Positions 7-59,565 of a stretch of 64,000 bases of DNA are shown here, in pieces. The notes beneath the pieces were generated by a model. That model was not told the origin of the DNA. It ran no database searches and saw nothing but the letters and a program-made list of their open reading frames with translations. Position 1 is the first letter of the stretch. Each line of letters starts with the position of its first letter. A program made the position numbers and the translations under genes. Origin of the DNA: an uncultured Clostridia bacterium (GTDB lineage Bacteria > Bacillota > Clostridia > Christensenellales > Borkfalkiaceae); NCBI GenBank assembly GCA_944341075.1, contig CALVLV010000004.1, positions 3,829 to 67,828 on the forward strand. The letters are read 5' to 3'.

Positions 7-3000
7 ATGGGTTACCTTGCCCTTCAGTGCGAAAATGTGTTCAACCGCCTTTCGGGCATGATAAGCGCTCTTGAAGAAAAAGTCGAAGCTAATGCCGTCG
101 ACTACGAAAAGCTCGCCGATATGCTGCGCGAGCAGTTCGCTTCCGCGGAAGAGCCCGAAGAAGAGATCACGTTCGACGACGAGGTGGCTCCCGCAGCCGT
201 CACCGAAGAGGCCGACGACGAGCAGCTGACCATAGAAGACGGTTACATAGACTACGACCTCATAGCCGAAAAGCTTGCCGACAAGCTCGAAGAGCGCGGC
301 ACGCTCCGCACGGCAGAGATCGACTGCGACGAGCTGGCAAAGAAGGTTGCCGACAGCCTTCCTCCCCAGGAAGTCATTTCGCCCGACTATATTGCATCCA
401 AGGTCGCCGAGCAGATCGTCGTTCCCCAGGTTGTGGTGGGCGAAAGCGGCGAAGCTCAGCCCATAGAAGTGCACGCCACCGCCGAAGTAGACTACGAGGC
501 GCTCGCCGATAAGATAGCCGAAAGGCTTGTTCCCCTTGAAGACGAGGAAGATTACGAAGAATATGAAGACGCCGAGGCAGAGGACGAAGAGACTGCCGAA
601 GGCGAAGAGATAACCGAAGCCGCCGCAGAGAGCACCGTGGCCGATACCGATGCGCTCGCCGACGAAATAGCACGCAAGGTCAGCGCGCTTTCGCCCAACG
701 ACTTCGACATAATTGTAGACGACGAGGGCTGCCGTTCGCTTGCCGAAGCAGTTATAGACAGCCTCGACTACGACCTTATAATTCAGAAGATAGCCGAAAA
801 GAGCGCCGAAAAGGCAGCGGAAGAGACGGCTGCAGAAGAAGTTGCCGTTGCCGACGCCGCCGCCGAAGAGACAGAGGGTGCAGACAGCGAGGAGCTTGCT
901 CAGCTCATCTCCGAAAAGCTTGCCGTCAACGAAGACGCCATTGCCGATAAGACGGCCGCCGCCGTTTCCAACTACCTGCCCGACATTGACGCCGAAGATA
1001 TCGCAGACAAGGTGGCAGCGGCAGTGCTCGCCTCAATACCCGCTACGGAGATCGACTACGACGCCATAATCAACGGCGTAGTTGAAAAGCTCCGCGGCGA
1101 AGAGGCCGGGGAAGAGAGCGCCGAAGAGGTTGCTCCCGCCGCCGCAGAGGAGACTGCAGAAGAACCTGTTGAAGACGATTACGACATAGTTATCGACGAA
1201 GAGGGGCTTCAGAAGATAACCGAAAGCGTTTCGTGGAAGGTCACCGCCTCTACCAACGCAATGTTCGAAAGCGTGAACGACAAGCTTGCAGCCCTCAAGG
1301 GCGAGCTTGAAGAGCTCAAGGAACAGCTCAAAGAGGAGCAGCCCGCCGAAGAGGCCGCCGAAGTAATAGACGAAAGCGCCGAGGCCGTTGAAGAAGAGAC
1401 TGCCGCGGAAGAGGCCGCAGAGACCAACGAAGAGATAGCCGAACTCGGCCGCAAGATAGACGAGCTTGCCGCCAAGTTCGAAGAGCTGCTCACCCCCGAC
1501 GAAGAGGAGCTTGCCGAAGGCGAGGACGAGGCTGAAGCAGCCGAAGAGCAGAAGCCGCTTGCCACGGCGGAGGAAGTGGACGCCCTTGCCCGCAAGATAG
1601 ACGAACTCACCGCCAAACTCGAAGAACTTCTCACTCCCGATGAAGAGCTTGAAGAGGCATCTTCCGAGGAAGAGACCGAAGAGGAAGACCAGGCTGCGGT
1701 AACTGCAGAAGAGGTTGCCGAGATCAACCGCAAGATAGACGAACTCACCGCCAAGATAGAGGAACTTCTCACGCCCGACGAGGAGCTTGAAGAGGTTGAA
1801 GAGAGCGCCGAAGAGGCTGCTCCCTCCGCCGAAGACGAACTCAGGGCAGAGCTTGAAAACATCAAGACAACGCTCGAAGAGATAAAGCACGATCCCGCAA
1901 TACAGGATCTCAAGGGCGAAGTCGCCGAGCTCACCTCAAGGATAGACGAACTGTTCGCTCCCGAAGAAGAGGAAGGCGAAGAGGGCGAAACCGTATACGA
2001 AGAGCCCGATCCCGTCCAGGCCGAATTCGACGACATCAAGCAGAAGCTTGAGGATATGAAGAACGACCCTGCAATACAGGATCTCAAGGGCGAAGTTGCC
2101 GAACTCACCTCAAGGATAGACGAGCTTATGGCCCGCTCGGCAAGCGCCGAAGAACAGCCCGAGGCCGCCGCAGAAGAAGATAAGTCGGCGGAAGACATCG
2201 CCGAGATCAGGCAGGATATAGCCGAAATCAACAGGCAGCTCGACCAGATAAAGGCAATGATAGTTGCCGGCGCCGTAGTCACCACGGTGGCAGCGGCAAG
2301 CGACGGCGATTCAAATGAAGAGCCCGAACCCGTTGAAGAAACTGCCGCCGAGGAGGCCCCTGCAGAGGAAGAACCCGCAGAGGAACCTTCGGAAGAGGCT
2401 GAAGAAGTTGCCGAAGAGCCCGTTGAAGAGCAGCTTGCCGAGGAACAGCCCGAAGAAGCAGCCGAAGAGGCTGTTGAAGAGGCTGCGGAAGAACCCGTAG
2501 CAGAAGTTGAAGAGATTGCCGAAGAGCCCGTTGAAGAGCCCGCTGAAGAAGTTGAAGAGGCTGCGGAGGAGGCCCCCGCGGAAGAACCCGCTGAGGAGCC
2601 CGCAGAGGAACCTTCGGAAGAGGCTGAAGAGGCCGAAGAGGAAGGCGAGCTTGTTACCGTAAGCGACATAGTGGACGAAAGCGAGGTGGACGACGAACCT
2701 GTAGACGAGGTTATGGAGAACATCTTCGACGACGTAGACGAAGAGACGGCGGAAGGCGAGGCCCAGCCCGACGGAATACCCGGCATAAGCAACGGCGGCG
2801 TAGACTTCGCCAACATGATGAAGTATAACCGCAGCTTTATTGCAAGGATAATCCAGAGCAGCGACGACGTAAAGCGCTACTATGGCCAGATAAAGAACGC
2901 CATGCTTGCATACAGAAAGGTCAACTCGTCCATAGCATGGGGTGCCGAGCGCTTCAACAAGGGCAGGGAGACCATTGCAAAGCTGAAGATACGCGGCAAG

Positions 3001-3288
3001 ACGCTGTGCCTGTACCTCAACCTCGACCCTAACGAATTCAAGACTTCCGTTTACCACCAGGTGGACGTATCCGACAACAAGTCGATGCACGGCACGCCCA
3101 TGATGGTCAAGATCAAGAGCCCTCTCGGCGTTAAAAAGGCCATCCGCCTTATAGACGAAATGTTAAGGCGCCGCAACGGCGAAAAGCGCCCCATACAGGA
3201 AAGGGACTACGCCGCCATGTATCCTTACGAAACGATAGAAGAGCTTATCGAAGACGGACTTGTTAAGGACGTGAGGAAGATAAAGTAA
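7..3288 (+). CDS. Hyper-acidic (Glu/Ala/Asp-rich) repeat protein with a basic non-repetitive C-terminal domain; function unknown
   Basis: Uninterrupted 1093-codon ORF. The 5' end may lie upstream of the window, since there is no in-frame stop before nt 7. The translation shows about 10 copies of an amphipathic D-Y-D/E-x-L/I-A-x-K-I/V-A motif (nt ~90-1120). It also shows three ~47-aa repeats RKIDEL(T/A)AK(L/I/F)EELLTPDEE (nt 1431-1790) and two repeats DPAIQDLKGEVAELTSRIDEL (1890-2135). These are followed by EEPAEEPSEEAEE low complexity (2340-2640) and a Lys/Arg-rich ~160-aa tail (2800-3288). I do not recognise the tail family. Confidence 0.75.
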   Translation: MGYLALQCENVFNRLSGMISALEEKVEANAVDYEKLADMLREQFASAEEPEEEITFDDEVAPAAVTEEADDEQLTIEDGYIDYDLIAEKLADKLEERGTLRTAEIDCDELAKKVADSLPPQEVISPDYIASKVAEQIVVPQVVVGESGEAQPIEVHATAEVDYEALADKIAERLVPLEDEEDYEEYEDAEAEDEETAEGEEITEAAAESTVADTDALADEIARKVSALSPNDFDIIVDDEGCRSLAEAVIDSLDYDLIIQKIAEKSAEKAAEETAAEEVAVADAAAEETEGADSEELAQLISEKLAVNEDAIADKTAAAVSNYLPDIDAEDIADKVAAAVLASIPATEIDYDAIINGVVEKLRGEEAGEESAEEVAPAAAEETAEEPVEDDYDIVIDEEGLQKITESVSWKVTASTNAMFESVNDKLAALKGELEELKEQLKEEQPAEEAAEVIDESAEAVEEETAAEEAAETNEEIAELGRKIDELAAKFEELLTPDEEELAEGEDEAEAAEEQKPLATAEEVDALARKIDELTAKLEELLTPDEELEEASSEEETEEEDQAAVTAEEVAEINRKIDELTAKIEELLTPDEELEEVEESAEEAAPSAEDELRAELENIKTTLEEIKHDPAIQDLKGEVAELTSRIDELFAPEEEEGEEGETVYEEPDPVQAEFDDIKQKLEDMKNDPAIQDLKGEVAELTSRIDELMARSASAEEQPEAAAEEDKSAEDIAEIRQDIAEINRQLDQIKAMIVAGAVVTTVAAASDGDSNEEPEPVEETAAEEAPAEEEPAEEPSEEAEEVAEEPVEEQLAEEQPEEAAEEAVEEAAEEPVAEVEEIAEEPVEEPAEEVEEAAEEAPAEEPAEEPAEEPSEEAEEAEEEGELVTVSDIVDESEVDDEPVDEVMENIFDDVDEETAEGEAQPDGIPGISNGGVDFANMMKYNRSFIARIIQSSDDVKRYYGQIKNAMLAYRKVNSSIAWGAERFNKGRETIAKLKIRGKTLCLYLNLDPNEFKTSVYHQVDVSDNKSMHGTPMMVKIKSPLGVKKAIRLIDEMLRRRNGEKRPIQERDYAAMYPYETIEELIEDGLVKDVRKIK

Positions 3289-5763: not shown

Positions 5764-6086
5764 GCTTGAGAAACCAGGGTCTCGTGCGGCGTGCGGTAAA
5801 TTACCGCCGCACTCGGTCACCGCTCGCACTTTGCACTTTGTGCTCGCTCATTTCACAACACGCAAACAGCGCGTATGTGCTGTTTGCAGAAATGTGTTGT
5901 TCAACTCTTCGCGCGACTTTTAAGGGCCCACGAATATATAGTCGCGCGAATTCCCTTCCGGTGCGCGAGGGCTTTTGCCCGCTGCCCTGCCGAGGGTTCC
6001 CTTCGGGAAACGGCAGAACTCGCTTGCGCGACAAATTGGGTCGCGCTGGCGCAGGGGAACCCTGCTTGCGCCGTAATTTATTTAAT
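5764..6086 (-). repeat. Composite interspersed repeat, type I long form (H-proximal end on the left)
   Basis: Order on the + strand: M2 GAGAAACCAGGGTCTC (5768-5783), then core hairpins (5784-5905). The core hairpins are GTGCGGCG..CGCCGCAC and GCAAACAGC-GCGTATGT-GCTGTTTGC. Next come the L hairpin (5908-5952), GC-rich stems (5953-6072) and the AT-rich terminus GTAATTTATTTAAT (6073-6086). Positions 5768-6040 match the reverse complement of 40961-41233 with only 6 mismatches by my hand alignment. Confidence 0.9.
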
Positions 6087-12046: not shown

Positions 12047-12238
12047 GTAAAATTAAATTAATAAAAGTCGCAAGGCGGGTTTCCCGCCGCAGCAGGCCCC
12101 CATTTGCGCATACCTGCGCCTCAGCAGGGTGAATGGCGAAGATTATATAATCGTAGGCCCTTAAGTATCTTCGCCAGAGGGGCTGGCCCTTAAAAGTCAC
12201 GAAATTTTTCGTTTTCGGCCAAAACGAAAAATTTGTGA
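12047..12238 (+). repeat. Composite interspersed repeat, type I short form
   Basis: AT-rich terminus AAAATTAAATTAAT (12049-), stem GGCGGG-TTT-CCCGCC (12075-12089) and L hairpin (12131-12175; stem GGCGAAGAT/ATCTTCGCC, loop TATATAATCGTAGGCCCTTAAGT). These are followed by the G palindrome (12177-12191) and H (12197-12238). It is the mirror image of 21628-21815. Confidence 0.9.
12197..12238. repeat. H hairpin copy 2
   Basis: TCACGAAATTTTTCGTTTTCGGCCAAAACGAAAAATTTGTGA. Confidence 0.9.
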
Positions 12239-21618: not shown

Positions 21619-21627
21619 AAAAAGTTT

Positions 21628-21669
21628 TCACAAATTTTTCGTGCGGGCCGCGCCCGAAAAATTTCGTGA
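21628..21669. repeat. H hairpin copy 3
   Basis: TCACAAATTTTTCGTGCGGGCCGCGCCCGAAAAATTTCGTGA. Begins 9 nt after the stop at 21618. Confidence 0.9.
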
Positions 21670-21815
21670 GTTTGGGAGAGCCAGCTCTCCCTTGCCACGA
21701 TTTTTTAAGGGCCCCCGATAATATAATCGGGGCAATTCCCTCTTTGGTGAGCCTGCTGACCGCAGCAAATTGGGTCTTGCGGCGGCGGGAAACCCGCCTT
21801 GCAAACGTAAATTGT
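21670..21815 (-). repeat. Composite repeat, type I short form (mirror of 12047-12196)
   Basis: G palindrome GGGAGAGCCAGCTCTCCC (21674-21691), reversed L hairpin (21692-21738), the GCGGCGGGAAACCCGCC stem, and the terminus ..GTAAATTG. Confidence 0.85.
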
Positions 21816-21827
21816 TCTATGTAATAA

Positions 21828-21865
21828 TTGTCATTTCGACCGAGCGACAGCGAGTGGAGAAATCT
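21828..21865 (+). repeat. S module copy (TTGTCATTTCGACCGAGCG..GGAGAAATCT)
   Basis: TTGTCATTTCGACCGAGCGACAGCGAGTGGAGAAATCT. The same module occurs at 26810, 35969, 40717, 49917, 54261 and in reverse elsewhere. Confidence 0.85.
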
Positions 21866-21877
21866 ATTCCGCAATAC

Positions 21878-23886: not shown

Positions 23887-23896
23887 AAATATATGT

Positions 23897-23938
23897 TCAC
23901 AATTTTTTCGGTCGGGCCGCGGCCGAAAAAATTCGTGA
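23897..23938. repeat. H hairpin copy 4
   Basis: TCACAATTTTTTCGGTCGGGCCGCGGCCGAAAAAATTCGTGA. Begins 10 nt after the stop at 23886. Confidence 0.9.
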
Positions 23939-24084
23939 GTTTAAGAAACCAAGTTTCTCTTCGCGCGACCTCTAAGTGCCCACGATTGTATAGTCGCGCG
24001 AATTCACTTCCGGTGAGCCCGCTTGCGCGGCAAATTGTGTCGCGCTGGCGCAGGGGAACCCTGCTTGCGCACATAATTTATTTG
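23939..24084 (-). repeat. Composite repeat, type I without the core insert
   Basis: M2 AAGAAACCAAGTTTCTC is followed directly by the reversed L hairpin (23960-24004). Next come GC stems GCGCGGCAAATTGTGTCGCGC and GCGCAGGGGAACCCTGCTTGCGC, then the terminus ACATAATTTATTTG. Compared with 5764-6086, the 122-nt core is absent exactly at the M2/L junction. Confidence 0.85.
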
Positions 24085-26444: not shown

Positions 26445-26486
26445 TCACGAAATTTTACGCCTGGCCGAGTCGTAAAATTTCCGTGA
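26445..26486. repeat. H hairpin copy 5
   Basis: TCACGAAATTTTACGCCTGGCCGAGTCGTAAAATTTCCGTGA. Begins 7 nt after the stop at 26437. Confidence 0.9.
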
Positions 26487-26810
26487 TTTGAGGGGCCTTC
26501 TCGCGCGGCGTGCGGTAAATTACCGCCGCGCTCGGTCACCGCAAATGCCTTGAATATGCATTTGCTCATCTCGCACCACGCAAACAGCGCGTATGTGCTG
26601 TTTGCAGAAATGTGTTGCGTCCCTCTTTGCGCAATCTTTAGTGCCCACGAAGTGTATAATTGCGCAAATTCACCCTGCTGCGCGAGGGCTTTGCCCGCTG
26701 CCCTGCCGAGGGTTCCCTTTGGGAAACGGCAGATGCGCAGGTATGCGCAAATTGTGTCCTGCTGCGGCGGCATAGCCGCCTTGCGACATTATTTATTTCA
26801 GAAAAATAAT
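26487..26810 (-). repeat. Composite repeat, type I long form (diverged paralogue of 5764-6086)
   Basis: Same module order as 5764-6086: M3 GCGCGGCG..CGCCGCGC (26503-26531), GCAAATGC..GCATTTGC, GCAAACAGC..GCTGTTTGC (26580-26605) and reversed L (26627-26670; stem TTGCGCAAT/ATTGCGCAA). These are followed by the CTGCCGAGGGTTCCC..GGGAAACGGCAG stem and the terminus ATTATTTATTT. Several stems differ from the 5.8-kb copy by paired (compensatory) changes. Confidence 0.85.
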
Positions 26811-35968: not shown

Positions 35969-36200
35969 TTGTCATTTCGACCGAGCGATAGCGAGCGGAG
36001 AAATCTCTGCCCAATTCTTGTCCCCCTTGTGTAAAGGGGGAATTGAAGGGGGATTGTGCCTTGTTTTGAGATTTCTCCGCAGTTTCCACGCTATGCGGGA
36101 ATCATCTGCCGTTTCCCATATGGAACCCCACGGCAGGGCAGCGGCTACGCCTCGCGCGGCAGGGGGCGTCGGCTATATCTCCTCGCGCGTGTAAATGACA
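35969..36200. mobile_element. MITE-like composite bounded by inverted TTGTCATTT termini
   Basis: The left end is TTGTCATTTCGACCGAGCGATAGCGAGCGGAGAAATCTC (an S module). The right end is ..ATATCTCCTCGCGCGTGTAAATGACAA, the inverse. Inside are the TCCCCCTT-GTGTAA-AGGGGGA hairpin, a reversed S stub GAGATTTCTCCGC (36068-) and CTGCCGTTTCCCATATGGAACCCCACGGCAGGGCAGCGG. The last of these is a variant of the stem in the type I elements. Confidence 0.6.
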
Positions 36201-40914: not shown

Positions 40915-41279
40915 TTTTAAATAATCAATGTTTCAAGCAAGGTTTCCTTGCGCAGAAAGACACAATTTGTCGCGTGAGCGAGTTCTGCCGTTTCCCGAAG
41001 GGAACCCTCGGCAGGGCAGCGGGCAAAAGCCCTCGCGCACCGGAAGTGAATTCGCGCGACTATATATTCGTGGGCTCTTAAAAGTCGCGCGAAGAGTTGA
41101 ACAACACATTTCTGCAAACAGCACATACGCGCTGTTTGCGTGTTGTGAAATGAGCGAGCACAAAGTGCAAAGTGCGAGCGGTGACCGAGTGCGGCGGTAA
41201 TTTACCGCACGCCGCACGAGACCTTGGTTTCTCAAAATCACGAATTTTTTCGGGCGCGGCCCGAACGAAAAAATTGTGA
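40915..41279 (+). repeat. Composite repeat, type I long form, including H copy 6 (41238-41279)
   Basis: Terminus TTTTAAATAATCAATGTT, GC stems, L hairpin (41048-41093), core (41097-41217), M2 GAGACCTTGGTTTCTC and H TCACGAATTTTTTCGGGCGCGGCCCGAACGAAAAAATTGTGA. Positions 40961-41233 are the inverted near-identical twin of 5768-6040. Confidence 0.9.
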
Positions 41280-47846: not shown

Positions 47847-47924
47847 ATTTGTGTGTGTGGTGGTTTTGTGTACTGCTCGCATCTCCAAGGTCATTATGTT
47901 CGTAGGCGTTGCGGTATATAAGCA

Positions 47925-48076
47925 AAAATTAATAAAATTAAATTAATCTAATTTGCGCAAGCAGGGTGAATTTGCCCCAATTATACTATATGAGAGCCCT
48001 TAAGATTGGGGCAAGGGGGAGCTGGCTCCCCAAAATCACGAAGATTTTACGGCGGCACCAGCCGCAAAATCTGTGA
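47925..48076 (+). repeat. Composite repeat, type I short form, including H copy 7 (48036-48076)
   Basis: AT-rich terminus AAAATTAATAAAATTAAATTAATCTAATT, GCGCAAGCAGGGTGAAT, and the L hairpin (47968-48014; stem GCCCCAATT/GATTGGGGC). These are followed by G GGGGAGCTGGCTCCCC (48016-48031) and H TCACGAAGATTTTACGGCGGCACCAGCCGCAAAATCTGTGA. H ends 9 nt before the plsX ATG. Confidence 0.9.
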
Positions 48077-48085
48077 GGTATTTTG

Positions 48086-49117
48086 ATGATTAAAATTTTA
48101 GTTGACGCAATGGGCGGCGACAATGCGCCCGCCGCGCCTGTAGAGGGCGCCGTAAAGGCCCTTGAGGCCGATAATGAAGTTTACCTCATTCTTGCAGGAA
48201 AGCAGGAAGTAATTGAGGAAGAGCTGAAAAAATACACGTACGATAAGTCCCGCATAGAGATAATGGACTGCCGCGACGTGATAGACATGAACGATATCCC
48301 CACCGAGGCCATACGCAAGAGCGAATCGTCGCTCGTAAAGGCTTTCCGTGCGCTCAAGGCGCAGGAAGATATCGCAGGCCTGGTCACGGCAGGTTCCACG
48401 GGTGCCACAATAGCCGCAGGCCAGCTGCTTCTGGGCAGAATACGCGGCATAAAGCGCCCCGCGCTCTGCCCCGCCATACCAAACATACGCGGCGGGTATA
48501 CTCTGCTGTGCGACTGCGGCGCCAATGCCGAGTGCAAGCCCTCTATGCTCTGCCAGTTTGCAGTGCTCGCCTCTGCCTATGCCGAGGCAGGTTTCGGCAT
48601 AAAGAACGCCAAAGTGGGCCTTTTGAATAACGGCACCGAAGAGCACAAGGGCGACCCCCTGCACCAGCAGACATACCAGCTGTTGAAGAAGATGGACGTT
48701 ATAAACTTCGGCGGCAACATCGAAGGGCGCGACATAATGATAGGCGACTGCGACGTTGCCGTGGCCGACGGCTTTTCGGGCAATATCGCCCTCAAGTCTA
48801 TCGAGGGGTGCGGCAAGCTGATACTCTCCGTGCTCAAAAAGGAGGCTACAAGTTCGCTCTCCTCAAAGATAGGCAGCCTGTTTTTAATGAAGGGCTTCAA
48901 GCGCATGCGCTCCCGCCTCGATTTCGAGGCCGTGGGCGGCGCCCTTCTCCTCGGCGTAAAAAAGGTGGTAATAAAGAGCCACGGCTCCTCAAAGGCGCGC
49001 ACTATAACCGCCGCCGTGCAGAATGCCGCCGCCATATACCGCGGCAACCTTATAGGCAAGGTGGAAAGCATGCTCGCCTCTGTCGACTGGAACAACCTCA
49101 TACCCAAAGATGAGTGA
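48086..49117 (+). CDS. plsX: Phosphate acyltransferase PlsX
   Basis: MIKILVDAMGGDNAP and the conserved GFSGNIALKS. The start is ATG 48086, since 48083 is a TTG one codon upstream. Confidence 0.93.
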   Translation: MIKILVDAMGGDNAPAAPVEGAVKALEADNEVYLILAGKQEVIEEELKKYTYDKSRIEIMDCRDVIDMNDIPTEAIRKSESSLVKAFRALKAQEDIAGLVTAGSTGATIAAGQLLLGRIRGIKRPALCPAIPNIRGGYTLLCDCGANAECKPSMLCQFAVLASAYAEAGFGIKNAKVGLLNNGTEEHKGDPLHQQTYQLLKKMDVINFGGNIEGRDIMIGDCDVAVADGFSGNIALKSIEGCGKLILSVLKKEATSSLSSKIGSLFLMKGFKRMRSRLDFEAVGGALLLGVKKVVIKSHGSSKARTITAAVQNAAAIYRGNLIGKVESMLASVDWNNLIPKDE

Positions 49118-49916: not shown

Positions 49917-50085
49917 TTGTCATTTCAGCTTGGCGCATTTATATGTCATTGACGCTATTGCGCCTACGGCGAACAATAGCTATTCCGTCGCTTCGCTCCT
50001 TACGACCGAGCGGCAGCGAGTGGAGAAATCTCAAAATAAGAGATCTCTCCATGCGCTCATTACATTCGCTTAGTCGAGATGATAG
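49917..50085. mobile_element. Inverted S-long / S pair (MITE-like)
   Basis: The left part contains TGTCATTGACGCTATTGCGCCTACGGCGAACAATAGCTATTCCGTCGCTTCGCTCCTTACGACCGAGCGGCAGCGAGTGGAGAAATCTC, which matches the reverse complement of 59276-59370. The right part, AGATCTCTCCATGCGCTCATTACATTCGCTTAGTCGAGATGA, matches the reverse complement of the S copy at 40722-40762. Confidence 0.7.
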
Positions 50086-50205: not shown

Positions 50206-50509
50206 TTACTTATGTGCGCAAGGCGAATTTAGTTCGCCGTTAAGCGGTCGCCTCGTGCCTCGTTGGTCGGCTCCGCAACGCCTCACGCTTTGCTCGGCAT
50301 GTTGCGGTTTCTCCGCGGCACACGAACAGCGGGTATCCGCTGTTCTACAGAACGTGCCGCTCGTCCCTATTTGCTGCGGTCAGCAGGCTCACCAAATGGG
50401 GAATTGCCCCAATTATAATATAAGAGAGCCCCTGAAATTGGGGCAAGGGGGAGCTGGCTCCCCTAAATCACGGAAAAAGATTTGCGTCACCAGCAAAGAT
50501 TTTTCGTGA
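50199..50509 (+). repeat. Composite repeat, type II, including H copy 8 (50468-50509)
   Basis: Terminus TTTAAAATTACTTATGT, V module (50250-50400, ~90% identical to 54777-54927), L hairpin (50401-50446), G (50447-50463) and H TCACGGAAAAAGATTTGCGTCACCAGCAAAGATTTTTCGTGA. H ends 13 nt before the smc ATG. Confidence 0.9.
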
Positions 50510-54122: not shown

Positions 54123-54128
54123 AATGGT

Positions 54129-54150
54129 GCGCACCTTGATTGCGGTGCGC
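54129..54150 (+). terminator. Short stem-loop after smc
   Basis: GCGCACC-TTGATTGC-GGTGCGC, with no U-run. Confidence 0.35.
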
Positions 54151-54172
54151 TGCCTTCCCCAGCCAAGGGGAG

Positions 54173-54227
54173 GCTTCCGTCGCCTGCGGCTCCTTACGAC
54201 CGAGCGATAGCGAGTGGAGAAATCTTG
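54173..54227 (+). repeat. S-long module, 3' part
   Basis: CCGTCGCCTGCGGCTCCTTACGACCGAGCGATAGCGAGTGGAGAAATCTTG. It is preceded by the X-like CCTTCCCC-AGCCAA-GGGGAGG hairpin (54153-54172). Confidence 0.7.
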
Positions 54228-54260
54228 AAAAATCCCTCAGTCAGGCTGTTGCCTGTCAGT

Positions 54261-54361
54261 CGTCATTTCGACTGTAGCGAACGAAGTGAGCGGAATGGAG
54301 AAATCTCGTTGTTTTTTATTGAGATTTCTCCGCGCGGGCTTTGCCCTTGGTCGAAATGACA
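54261..54361. mobile_element. Inverted pair of S modules (101-bp hairpin / MITE-like unit)
   Basis: CGTCATTTCGACTGTAGCGAACGAAGTGAGCGGAATGGAGAAATCTC-GTTGTTTTTTATT-GAGATTTCTCCGCGCGGGCTTTGCCCTTGGTCGAAATGACA. Confidence 0.75.
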
Positions 54362-54382
54362 GGTAATATAACCGGTACGAAA

Positions 54383-54486
54383 AAATTTTAAAACAAATAA
54401 TGCTGAAAATTGCAAAGCGGAATTTACTTCCGTTGTTAAGCAATTTTACGGCTTACCGTAAAATCACGGCGGAAGATTTTTGCAAA
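54383..54486 (+). repeat. T module plus truncated H (copy 14, left arm only)
   Basis: AAAATTTTAAAACAAATAATGCTGAAAATTGCAAAGCGGAATTTACTTCCGTTGTTAAGCAATTTTACGGCTTACCGTAAAA, then TCACGGCGGAAGATTTTTGCA. This runs directly into the AAATCCCACC end of an X module, the same junction as at 40827 and 59108. Confidence 0.8.
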
Positions 54487-54552
54487 TCCCACCGCCGCGG
54501 CCTGCGGTCGCGTCACCTCCCTTTGACAAGGGAGGCACGAATAAGGAAAGAT
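54484..54552 (-). repeat. X module copy 5
   Basis: CAAATCCCACCGCCGCGGCCTGCGGTCGCGTCACCTCCCTTTGACAAGGGAGGCACGAATAAGGAAAG. Confidence 0.8.
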
Positions 54553-55034
54553 TTAAAATAATTTATGTTTGCAAGGCGGGGTCTTGCCGCCATCAAGGTA
54601 AAACATGGCGGTTTTGCGGTTTCCCAAAGGGAACCCTCCGCAAAGTAGCGTCGCTTGCGCTCCTCACGCGGTCACCGCAAACGCAAGTCATATGCGTTTG
54701 CTCATCTCACTTCACCACGCACAACGGGTGTCCGTTGTGCTATGAAATGGCTCGTTCGTCCCGCCGCCGCAAGTTCGCCTCGTATCCTCGTTGGTCGGCT
54801 CCGCAACGCCTCACGCTTTGCTCGGCATGTTGCGGTCTCTCCGCGGCACACGAACAGCGGGTGTCCGCTGTTCTATTGGGCGTGCCGCTCGTCTCAATTT
54901 GCTGCGGCCAGCAGGCTCACCAAGGGTGAATTTGCGCAATTATATAACCGAGGGCATTTAAGATTGCGCAAAGAGGGGCTGGCCCCTTAACATCACGAAA
55001 TTTTTCGCGCTCGGCCAGCACGAAAAAATTGTGA
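54551..55034 (+). repeat. Composite repeat, type II long form, including H copy 9 (54993-55034)
   Basis: Terminus ATTTAAAATAATTTATGTT, GC stems, and a core variant (54655-54760; GCAAACGCA..TGCGTTTGC and GCACAACGG-GTGT-CCGTTGTGC). These are followed by V (54777-54927), L (54928-54971; stem GCGCAAT/ATTGCGC), G (54975-54986) and H TCACGAAATTTTTCGCGCTCGGCCAGCACGAAAAAATTGTGA. H ends 14 nt before the ftsY ATG. Confidence 0.9.
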
Positions 55035-55048
55035 AAAAGGTATATTGT

Positions 55049-56766: not shown

Positions 56767-57340
56767 CAAACTCACGAAATTTTTCGGGCGCGGCCCGCAC
56801 GAAAAATTTGTGAACCCTTTTTCCCGCCGTAAAGTTCAGCGCGGCAGCCCGCGCATAAAGAACTTTACAAGGAATAACTTTTCGCAACAGCAAGTTTAAA
56901 ACAAATTGTGCCGAAAAAGTGCAAGGACGAGCAACACATTTCTGCAAACAGCACATACGCGCTGTTTGCGTGTTGCGAGATGAGCAAAAGCATATTAAAA
57001 GCTTTTGCGGTGACCGAATGCGGCGGCAATATACCGCATGCCGCATGAGAAGATTTAGTTCAACCGTTAAGCACTTTTACGACTTACCGTAAAATCACGG
57101 AAAAAGATTTTTGCGTAGCAAAAAGATTTTTCGTGAACGTTTAAAATAATTAATGTGCGCAAGCAGGGTTTCCCTGCGATAGCGCGACTACATTTGCGGC
57201 GAAAGCCGGCTCACCGGAAGTGAATTCGCGCGACTGCATAATCGTGGGCCCTTAAAGGTCGCGCGAAGAGAAACTTGGTTTCTCAAACTCACGAAATTTT
57301 TCGGGCGCGGCCCGCACGAAAAATTTGTGAACCCTTTTTT
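56767..57340. repeat. 574-bp composite of repeat modules flanked by 56-nt perfect direct repeats
   Basis: Order: H copy 10 (56772-56813), U (56819-56901), reversed core (56926-57047, with M3 stem ATGCGGC../..GCCGCAT at 57018-57046) and a T tail (57053-57094). Next come H copy 12 (57095-57136, TCACGGAAAAAGATTTTTGCGTAGCAAAAAGATTTTTCGTGA) and a type I element (terminus 57139-, L 57222-57267, M2 GAGAAACTTGGTTTCTC). H copy 11 (57289-57330) closes the unit. CAAACTCACGAAATTTTTCGGGCGCGGCCCGCACGAAAAATTTGTGAACCCTTTTT occurs identically at 56767-56822 and 57285-57340. Confidence 0.85.
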
Positions 57341-58197: not shown

Positions 58198-58226
58198 TTG
58201 CCCGTCGGCGTGCAGTGTGGTATAAT
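58198..58226 (+). promoter_or_regulatory. Sigma-A promoter
   Basis: TTGCCC, a 17-nt spacer, then TATAAT with TGg (extended -10). It lies 24 nt upstream of the 58250 CDS. Confidence 0.65.
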
Positions 58227-59370: not shown

Positions 59371-59565
59371 ATTTTTTTAAATAATGAACGTTTCAAGCAG
59401 GGTTCCCCTGCGCAGAAAGACCCAATTTGTCGCGTAAGCGAGCTCACCAAAGGGGGAATGACTGCAATTGTATAATAAGTGAGCACTTAAAAATTGCAGT
59501 CAGGGGGAGCTGGCTCCCCCAAAGTCACGAAGATTTTACGGCGGCACCAGCCGTAAAATCTGTGA
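59371..59565 (+). repeat. Composite repeat, type I short form, including H copy 15 (59525-59565)
   Basis: Terminus ATTTTTTTAAATAATGAACGTT, CAAGCAGGGTTCCCCTGCG and the L hairpin (59456-59501; stem GACTGCAATT/AATTGCAGTC). These are followed by G GGGGGAGCTGGCTCCCCC (59503-59520) and H TCACGAAGATTTTACGGCGGCACCAGCCGTAAAATCTGTGA. H ends 4 nt from the radA stop codon. Confidence 0.9.

Follow-up and report, generated by a model that had tools for sequence, protein, structure and literature searches.

The DNA upstream of plsX in this uncultured Clostridia bacterium carries an inverted repeat, here called the L hairpin, in which a stem of changing sequence encloses a conserved TATAAT-like loop, and the question is what kind of element such a hairpin belongs to and what preserves it. 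A first-pass annotation of the window (the whole stretch of 64,000 nucleotides that was analysed; window coordinates equal those of contig C4 minus 3828) had proposed that L is a structure-specific ligand site. The analysis described here suggests that L may indeed be such a site, with the ligand being a candidate only. The explanation that fits best, and to which we give about an even chance, is that a non-autonomous interspersed repeat, similar to REP, BIME and BOX elements, has multiplied in intergenic DNA, and that L is the third of the five hairpins from which this repeat is built.

A covariance model (R1) was built from 51 genome-wide L copies. In the 64-kb window it matched exactly the eleven copies that had been listed beforehand (E 2e-8 to 2e-13), all of which were also confirmed by reading of the sequence, and no further copy was found with it (Table 1). 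Common to all eleven sites are GAA-T, a 10-bp stem and a loop of 22-25 nt. As R1 matches favour paired copies, a structure-blind search with the loop consensus was also made; this returned 27 copies in GAAT context, with both arms present in 27/27, the arms of two being kept apart by an insert within the loop. These two split copies lie outside the window in the same genome (G000:C1:27143-27540 and G000:C11:4878-5400). In both, the split point is inside the loop, after ..GGGC(A/G)CTA, and the insert of 320-430 nt possesses 17-bp terminal inverted repeats (AAGCCGAGTGCYAATAG / CTATTWGCACWCGGCTT), with both L arms left intact. The insert looks like a MITE of the terminal inverted repeat type that has inserted on two occasions into the AT-rich 3' portion of an L loop.

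Table 1. L hairpins of the window and parts of the repeat unit upstream of plsX (window coordinates).
Feature	Position	Strand	Details
L hairpin upstream of plsX	47964..48017	+	R1 match; 51.8 bits, E 2.4e-8
GAAT of this L copy	47968-47971	+	
5' arm of this L copy	47972-47981	+	TTGCCCCAAT
Loop of this L copy, 23 nt	47982-48004	+	TATACTATATGAGAGCCCTTAAG
3' arm of this L copy	48005-48014	+	ATTGGGGCAA
5' part of the same unit, incomplete	47924..47966	+	AT-rich leader and 5' half of hairpin A (GCGCAAGCAGGG)
G hairpin of the same unit	48015..48031	+	GGGGGAG-CTGG-CTCCCC; covarying stem, purine-rich 5' arm; alignment pairs 218-233
H hairpin of the same unit	48036..48076	+	4-bp foot TCAC/GTGA, bulged G, long A/T-rich covarying stem
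L copy, long-form unit	5905..5957	-	R1; stem TTCGCGCGAC
L copy	12127..12179	+	R1; stem TGGCGAAGAT
L copy	21689..21742	-	R1; stem TTGCCCCGAT, one C.T mismatch
L copy	23957..24009	-	R1; stem TTCGCGCGAC
L copy, long-form unit	26623..26675	-	R1; stem TTTGCGCAAT
L copy, long-form unit	41044..41096	+	R1; stem TTCGCGCGAC
L copy upstream of smc	50397..50449	+	R1; stem TTGCCCCAAT
L copy, final unit of the stacked repeats (926 nt) before ftsY	54924..54975	+	R1; stem TTTGCGCAAT
L copy in complete A-B-L-G-H unit (about 57140-57340)	57218..57270	+	R1; stem TTCGCGCGAC
L copy in complete unit (about 59375-59565)	59452..59505	+	R1; stem TGACTGCAAT

L never occurs alone: oriented flanks and a 61-sequence alignment show that it takes the third place in a unit of about 205 nt, A-B-L-G-H, which runs from TTAAAATAAT to GTGAAC. 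The unit consists of an AT-rich leader (TTAAAATAATTAACG), hairpin A, the invariant linker CAATTTG, hairpin B, the linker CTCAsC..G-GAAT, L, hairpin G, the linker AAA and hairpin H, with the last bases A-C completing the terminal ...GTGAAC. Throughout the genome almost all B modules have L downstream, at a distance of 29-32 nt or, in long forms with extra hairpins on either side of L, of 81-85 nt; almost all H modules have G before them, and head-to-tail tandem units are common. RNAalifold, applied to the unit alignment, recovers B, L, G and H, with compensated changes in 22/28 predicted pairs. What the first-pass annotation had called the G palindrome has no fixed sequence, G itself being a covarying hairpin. 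The unit upstream of plsX is an incomplete example, in which half of A is fused directly to GTGAAT, with the rest of A and hairpin B missing; the end of its H overlaps the plsX Shine-Dalgarno sequence GAGG (48075-48078), the ATG of plsX being located at 48086. In all H copies the 4-bp foot (TCAC/GTGA) is invariant and TCAC is followed immediately by a bulged G, which gives a fixed polarity to this otherwise near-palindromic hairpin.

Pairing of the L stem is kept almost without exception. In the bacterium's own genome 97.8% of stem cells pair (controls: 35-47% when the 3' partner was slid, 67% when it was shuffled), as do 99.7% of cells in 103 copies from other species. Covariation, which the first-pass annotation had asked to be checked on aligned copies, is present, with nine of the ten L pairs changing on both sides. 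Across 154 copies 32 stem types were counted, and all ten positions are paired in 142 copies. The own genome holds 12 of these types (for example TTCGCGCGAC in twelve copies, TGGCGGCATT in nine and TTTGCGCAAT in eight), several of which are found again in species with no more than 70-84% identity in coding DNA. The stem had also been said to differ in almost every copy. This is too strong: the eleven window copies show just five types, namely TCGCGCGAC (four copies), TTGCCCCRAT (three), TTGCGCAAT (two), GGCGAAGAT and GACTGCAAT (one each). Within groups that have a common 5' arm, differences affect 0.8-4.6% of sites in the 3' arm and 15-20% in the loop; between stem groups they affect 36-45% of sites in the 5' arm and 26-34% in the loop. 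The picture of a free stem around a conserved loop thus holds between lineages and is reversed within them, the stem there being better preserved than any other part. Stem types mark lineages and change very little within any one of them.

The loop is conserved on top of this variety. With the 32 stem types weighted equally, its consensus reads TATATaaT-n-G-t-G-n-GC-c-C-t-TAA-a-a, and the form TATATaaT-n-GtGnGC-cCtTAA is kept across the genus, in loops of 22-24 nt; loops in the window start with TATA(T/C)A, followed by G-G-GC-C-TTAA. At least 1.3 bits are carried by 11 of the 23 loop positions under the same weighting, with values near 2 bits at T1, T3, A4, the three G's and the C. The mean pairwise difference per site is 0.30 for the L loop and 0.50-0.54 for the loops of B, G and H, while CAATTTG and the foot of H are nearly invariant (about 0.02 differences per site). 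Recent common ancestry of all copies had been named as a possible cause of this conservation, but does not account for it, because one consensus sits on 32 different stems, in species that are 70-84% identical in coding DNA, and because the L loop differs so much less than its neighbours. Conserved single-stranded motifs of the unit are shown to be CAATTTG, G-GAAT, the L loop and the TCAC-G...GTGAA foot.

Strict Watson-Crick pairing is shown to be kept, and equally so on both strands. Among 4647 stem pairs of B, L, G and H in 160 copies, 29 G.T and 25 A.C were counted (p = 0.68), and no wobble asymmetry that would point to one RNA strand was seen. Wobble in the unit stems amounts to 0.6%, compared with 8.9% G.U in the tRNA stems of the same genome, being about 15-fold rarer. 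Several differences between stem types are transversion swaps (C-G to G-C, C-G to A-T) without a wobble intermediate, and a C.T mismatched intermediate was observed in one copy (window 21692). The near-absence of wobble, the strand symmetry, the transversion swaps and the lack of a preferred orientation suggest that the constraint acts on a DNA palindrome, through a folded single strand, through arm-to-arm correction, or both, and argue against selection on one transcribed RNA strand.

The repeat is widespread among close relatives. Relatives of its PlsX protein place the bacterium as a Candidatus Coproplasma / Christensenellales MAG. Searches with R1 found 57 L copies in the own genome, which comprises 44 contigs and 1.87 Mb. 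Among 36 further species assigned by GTDB to this genus the count ranges from 0 to 70, seven of them having no copy, and none was found in 24 genomes representing other families of the order (one per family). A mouse-gut MAG carries a unit before plsX, and a pattern scan of GTDB representatives, which evidently omits near relatives, added two further MAGs (one from rabbit, one from a gut sample), each with complete units. Since the mouse-gut and rabbit MAGs carry units, the repeat is genus-wide (Candidatus Coproplasma-level genus) and is not limited to chicken strains.

Comparison of orthologous spacers shows that the element has copy-number dynamics, a site being occupied in one species and empty in another. 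The asnS-plsX spacer contains a plus-oriented unit in the window and in two other species, a minus-oriented unit in one, and none in most. Between smc and ftsY (window 54123-55048), 926 nt of stacked repeats are present here, whereas six congeners have 8-171 nt of unrelated sequence; the terminal GTGAA of the last unit lies directly on the native AAAGG Shine-Dalgarno sequence. The closest genome compared is only about 84% identical in coding DNA, and exact-protein look-ups for PlsX and PurA, made for strain-level empty sites, returned no match. Position-wise end logos revealed neither terminal inverted repeats, the ends TTTTAAAATAAT... and ...TTTTGTGAAC not being inverted copies of each other, nor a consistent flanking target-site duplication.

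Several known repeat families resemble this unit in part. REP/BIME sequences of enterobacteria and REPINs of Pseudomonas have been described as extragenic high-copy hairpins with a GTAG tetranucleotide 5' of the stem (PMC3116915, PMC3337134, PMC8266576). The unit shares with REP/BIME a conserved tetranucleotide at the 5' foot (GAAT here, invariant together with the 10-bp stem in 57 own and 103 genus copies), the occurrence of mosaic clusters with other motifs, compensated stem changes, a location near gene ends and a copy number that varies greatly among related genomes. It is unlike them in that high-copy genomes lack RAYT/Y1, with which REP/BIME are associated, in that its loop is sequence-conserved and 22-24 nt long compared with about 5 nt in REP, and in forming a head-to-tail chain of five different hairpins in a Clostridia lineage. 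Unlike REPINs, the units form no inverted doublet, being single or head-to-tail with L flanked by B and G, and unlike MITEs they have neither terminal inverted repeats nor a consistent target duplication.

BOX of Streptococcus pneumoniae (boxA-boxB-boxC; PMC3049150) is similar in its Firmicute host and modular make-up with optional extra modules, to which the short and long forms seen here correspond when compared by architecture only. It is likewise strongly folded, intergenic and often clustered with other repeats, and its mobilising enzyme is not established (PMC3049150). The present unit differs from BOX in lacking a terminal inverted repeat and in that its modules are separate covarying hairpins joined by invariant linkers. 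Well-described interspersed hairpin repeats come from proteobacteria (REP/REPIN with RAYT) and streptococci (BOX, RUP); for Christensenellales-type gut Clostridia no description was found in the literature and databases searched.

Hairpins are also recognised in rolling-circle and HUH systems, such as the geminivirus-type nonanucleotide loop, the pT181-type dso and the subterminal hairpin of Helitrons and IS91, the tetranucleotide GAAC being the target of IS91. The L hairpin may be likened to these in its workings only, as a stem that is free provided it pairs and an AT-rich conserved sequence in the loop, and the GTGAAC end of the unit contains GAAC. Its loop is, however, twice as long, high-copy genomes have no Y1 and no Y2 match was obtained; unlike IS608, the units show no lagging-strand-type orientation bias (27/57).

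A mobilising enzyme was sought among these families. Y1 transposases (PF01797) had no match in the own genome and none in the high-copy genomes as a group (G000, G004, G010, G020 and G024). Searches for TnpB-type proteins gave no match, nor did a search for IS91 Y2, to which control genomes were equally silent; the HUH search covered Y1 and Y2 in MAGs, which can lose plasmids and phages. When a full unit was compared by blastn with 50,697 phage and 72,556 plasmid records, nothing similar was found. Genes for Y1 (IS200/IS605-type) were observed in 11 of 41 congeners (G002, G005, G006, G017, G021, G023, G025, G029-G031 and G062), mostly species with few or no L copies, and no L copies flank the four Y1 genes that were examined. 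RAYT/IS200-IS605 was rejected as the mobiliser, being absent from high-copy genomes and uncorrelated with copy number. A pattern scan of IMG/VR returned a single match, which is attributed to chance since there is no hairpin at that site and no model score.

On the preferred reading, L would be constrained as DNA, by folding of the single strand or by arm-to-arm correction. Its recognition surface would comprise GAAT, the closed 10-bp stem and loop positions T1, T3, A4, G, G, GC and A. A putative trans-acting protein may read this surface and copy, move or maintain the element, so that L would be comparable with a REP hairpin and the tetranucleotide on its 5' side, or with the hairpin of a rolling-circle origin, whose loop is conserved. 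Against the interspersed-repeat explanation stand the size of the loop, which is much larger than in REP or IS200/IS605 hairpins, the lack of terminal inverted repeats and of a clear target duplication by which a transposition chemistry could be defined, and the fact that no mobilising enzyme was found.

The placement of the units raises the question of a role for the host. Among 37 clean H copies in the own genome, the H end is located 2-11 nt from a convergent stop codon in 15, and a start codon lies within 30 nt of it in nine more; the proximity to stop codons could reflect a host-level function rather than selfish spread. Of the 57 copies, 35 have the H end and L directed at the 3' end of a convergent gene and 22 have them directed at a gene start, and unit orientation shows no preference relative to the local gene-majority strand (27/57).

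These positions would suit units that are host-useful RNA structures, co-transcribed with the neighbouring gene as 3'-end stabilisers or attenuators behind stop codons, or as structured 5' leaders ahead of Shine-Dalgarno sequences, with L as a stem-loop that binds protein or RNA, as would the direct continuation of H into the Shine-Dalgarno sequences of plsX, smc and ftsY. Every copy has retained its stems, suggesting that the constraint persists once a unit has inserted, and published accounts describe effects of REP and BOX on co-transcribed genes (PMC3049150; bioRxiv 10.64898/2026.03.23.713779). Such a role is nevertheless rather unlikely: wobble is about 15-fold rarer than in tRNAs and without strand asymmetry, the orientation of units is not tied to that of genes, there are sister species that possess the same genes but no units, and no hairpin is followed by a U-tract. 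The strict Watson-Crick pairs and transversion-type swaps between stem types, together with the C.T mismatch at window 21692 and a binding protein that was not identified, would be expected if there were no ligand at all, the arms being matched by template switching at replication and the loop being uniform through a few master copies or interspecies transfer. We consider this distinctly improbable, given that the invariant loop positions occur on 32 stem types in species with saturated synonymous sites and that the loops of B, G and H in the same units are far freer. Moreover, arm correction cannot keep GAAT, CAATTTG and the bulged G of H, since these are non-palindromic.

The resemblance of the loop to TATAAT also invites a reading as a promoter -10 box that drives the G-H leader and the next gene. 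TATAWT is indeed the best-conserved block of the loop and is followed by a GC-rich, discriminator-like tract, and in the 22 copies mentioned above a gene start lies downstream in the same orientation. A promoter scan flagged only two copies, both on the minus strand (TTGCCC-18-TATAGT/TATATT, 9/12 matches). In the consensus copy, however, no -35-like hexamer is present 16-18 nt upstream on either strand: the spacing of TTG-type hexamers is 3-5 nt (plus strand) or 20-21 nt (minus strand), and a TG extension is lacking. A normal TTGNNN-17-TATAAT promoter at window 58198-58226 shows that the spacing used by this organism is the usual one, and the majority of L copies (35/57) point into the 3' end of a convergent gene. 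The -10 box that had been suggested from the loop is thus very hard to sustain, and we give it hardly any probability.

L had further been said not to be a plain terminator, and this is borne out by the lack of a U-tract after it on either strand. An intrinsic terminator was rejected, the loop, at 22-24 nt, being too large and the stem being followed by GAG/GGG on the plus strand or ATTCAC on the minus strand. Rfam returned no window match at the gathering score, and for the full unit only a spurious miRNA match (E = 1.2). A pseudoknot between upstream GCTCAC and loop GTGAGC was rejected as well, as it is perfect only in the 'caaagggg' subfamily and fails in ctgagcg/agcagggt.

Returning to the interspersed repeat, a more specific and speculative version, which we think has only a small chance of being correct, is that the unit is the folded single-strand substrate of an undescribed mobilisation or maintenance system that is neither RAYT/Y1 nor of IS91 type. 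Such a system would read the 23-nt L loop on its free stem, CAATTTG and the footed, bulged H, and would place H so that it ends only a few bases from a stop codon or Shine-Dalgarno sequence. If so, the units would be REP-like replicators of a new class, with a targeting rule of their own, and the finding of its enzyme would extend the REP/RAYT paradigm. The traits that make the element unusual are its clean structure of five covarying hairpins with invariant single-stranded motifs and almost no wobble, its abundance (up to 70 copies in genomes of less than 2 Mb), the lack of a known transposase alongside it and the location of one end within a few bases of gene boundaries. In practice, such repeats cause breaks in MAG assemblies and enlarge the 'intergenic' fraction of the DNA; they could serve as strain markers, and R1 would let annotators mask or count them.

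A number of additional features were observed. The spacer between stop codon and H is purine-rich and Shine-Dalgarno-like (AAGGGG, GAGGG), for example at window 21620-21670, 23890-23940 and 26445-26490; in the opposite orientation H abuts real Shine-Dalgarno sequences (plsX, smc, ftsY). Adjacent L copies on a contig have a common orientation in 29 of 42 neighbouring pairs, and within the window L is mostly on the minus strand to the left of dnaA and always on the plus strand to its right; no replication-strand bias was established, GC skew being too weak to place the origin and tracking gene strand. A second repeat family, the 'S module' of the first-pass annotation (TTGTCATTTCGACCGAGCG..AGCGAGTGGAGAAATC), occurs at window 21828-21870, 35969-36011, 49994-50036 and 54188-54230. 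A motif similar to this repeat is found in intergenic DNA of many unrelated bacteria. Finally, the window contains an ORF of 1093 amino acids (7-3288) that consists largely of Glu/Ala/Pro-rich tandem repeats.
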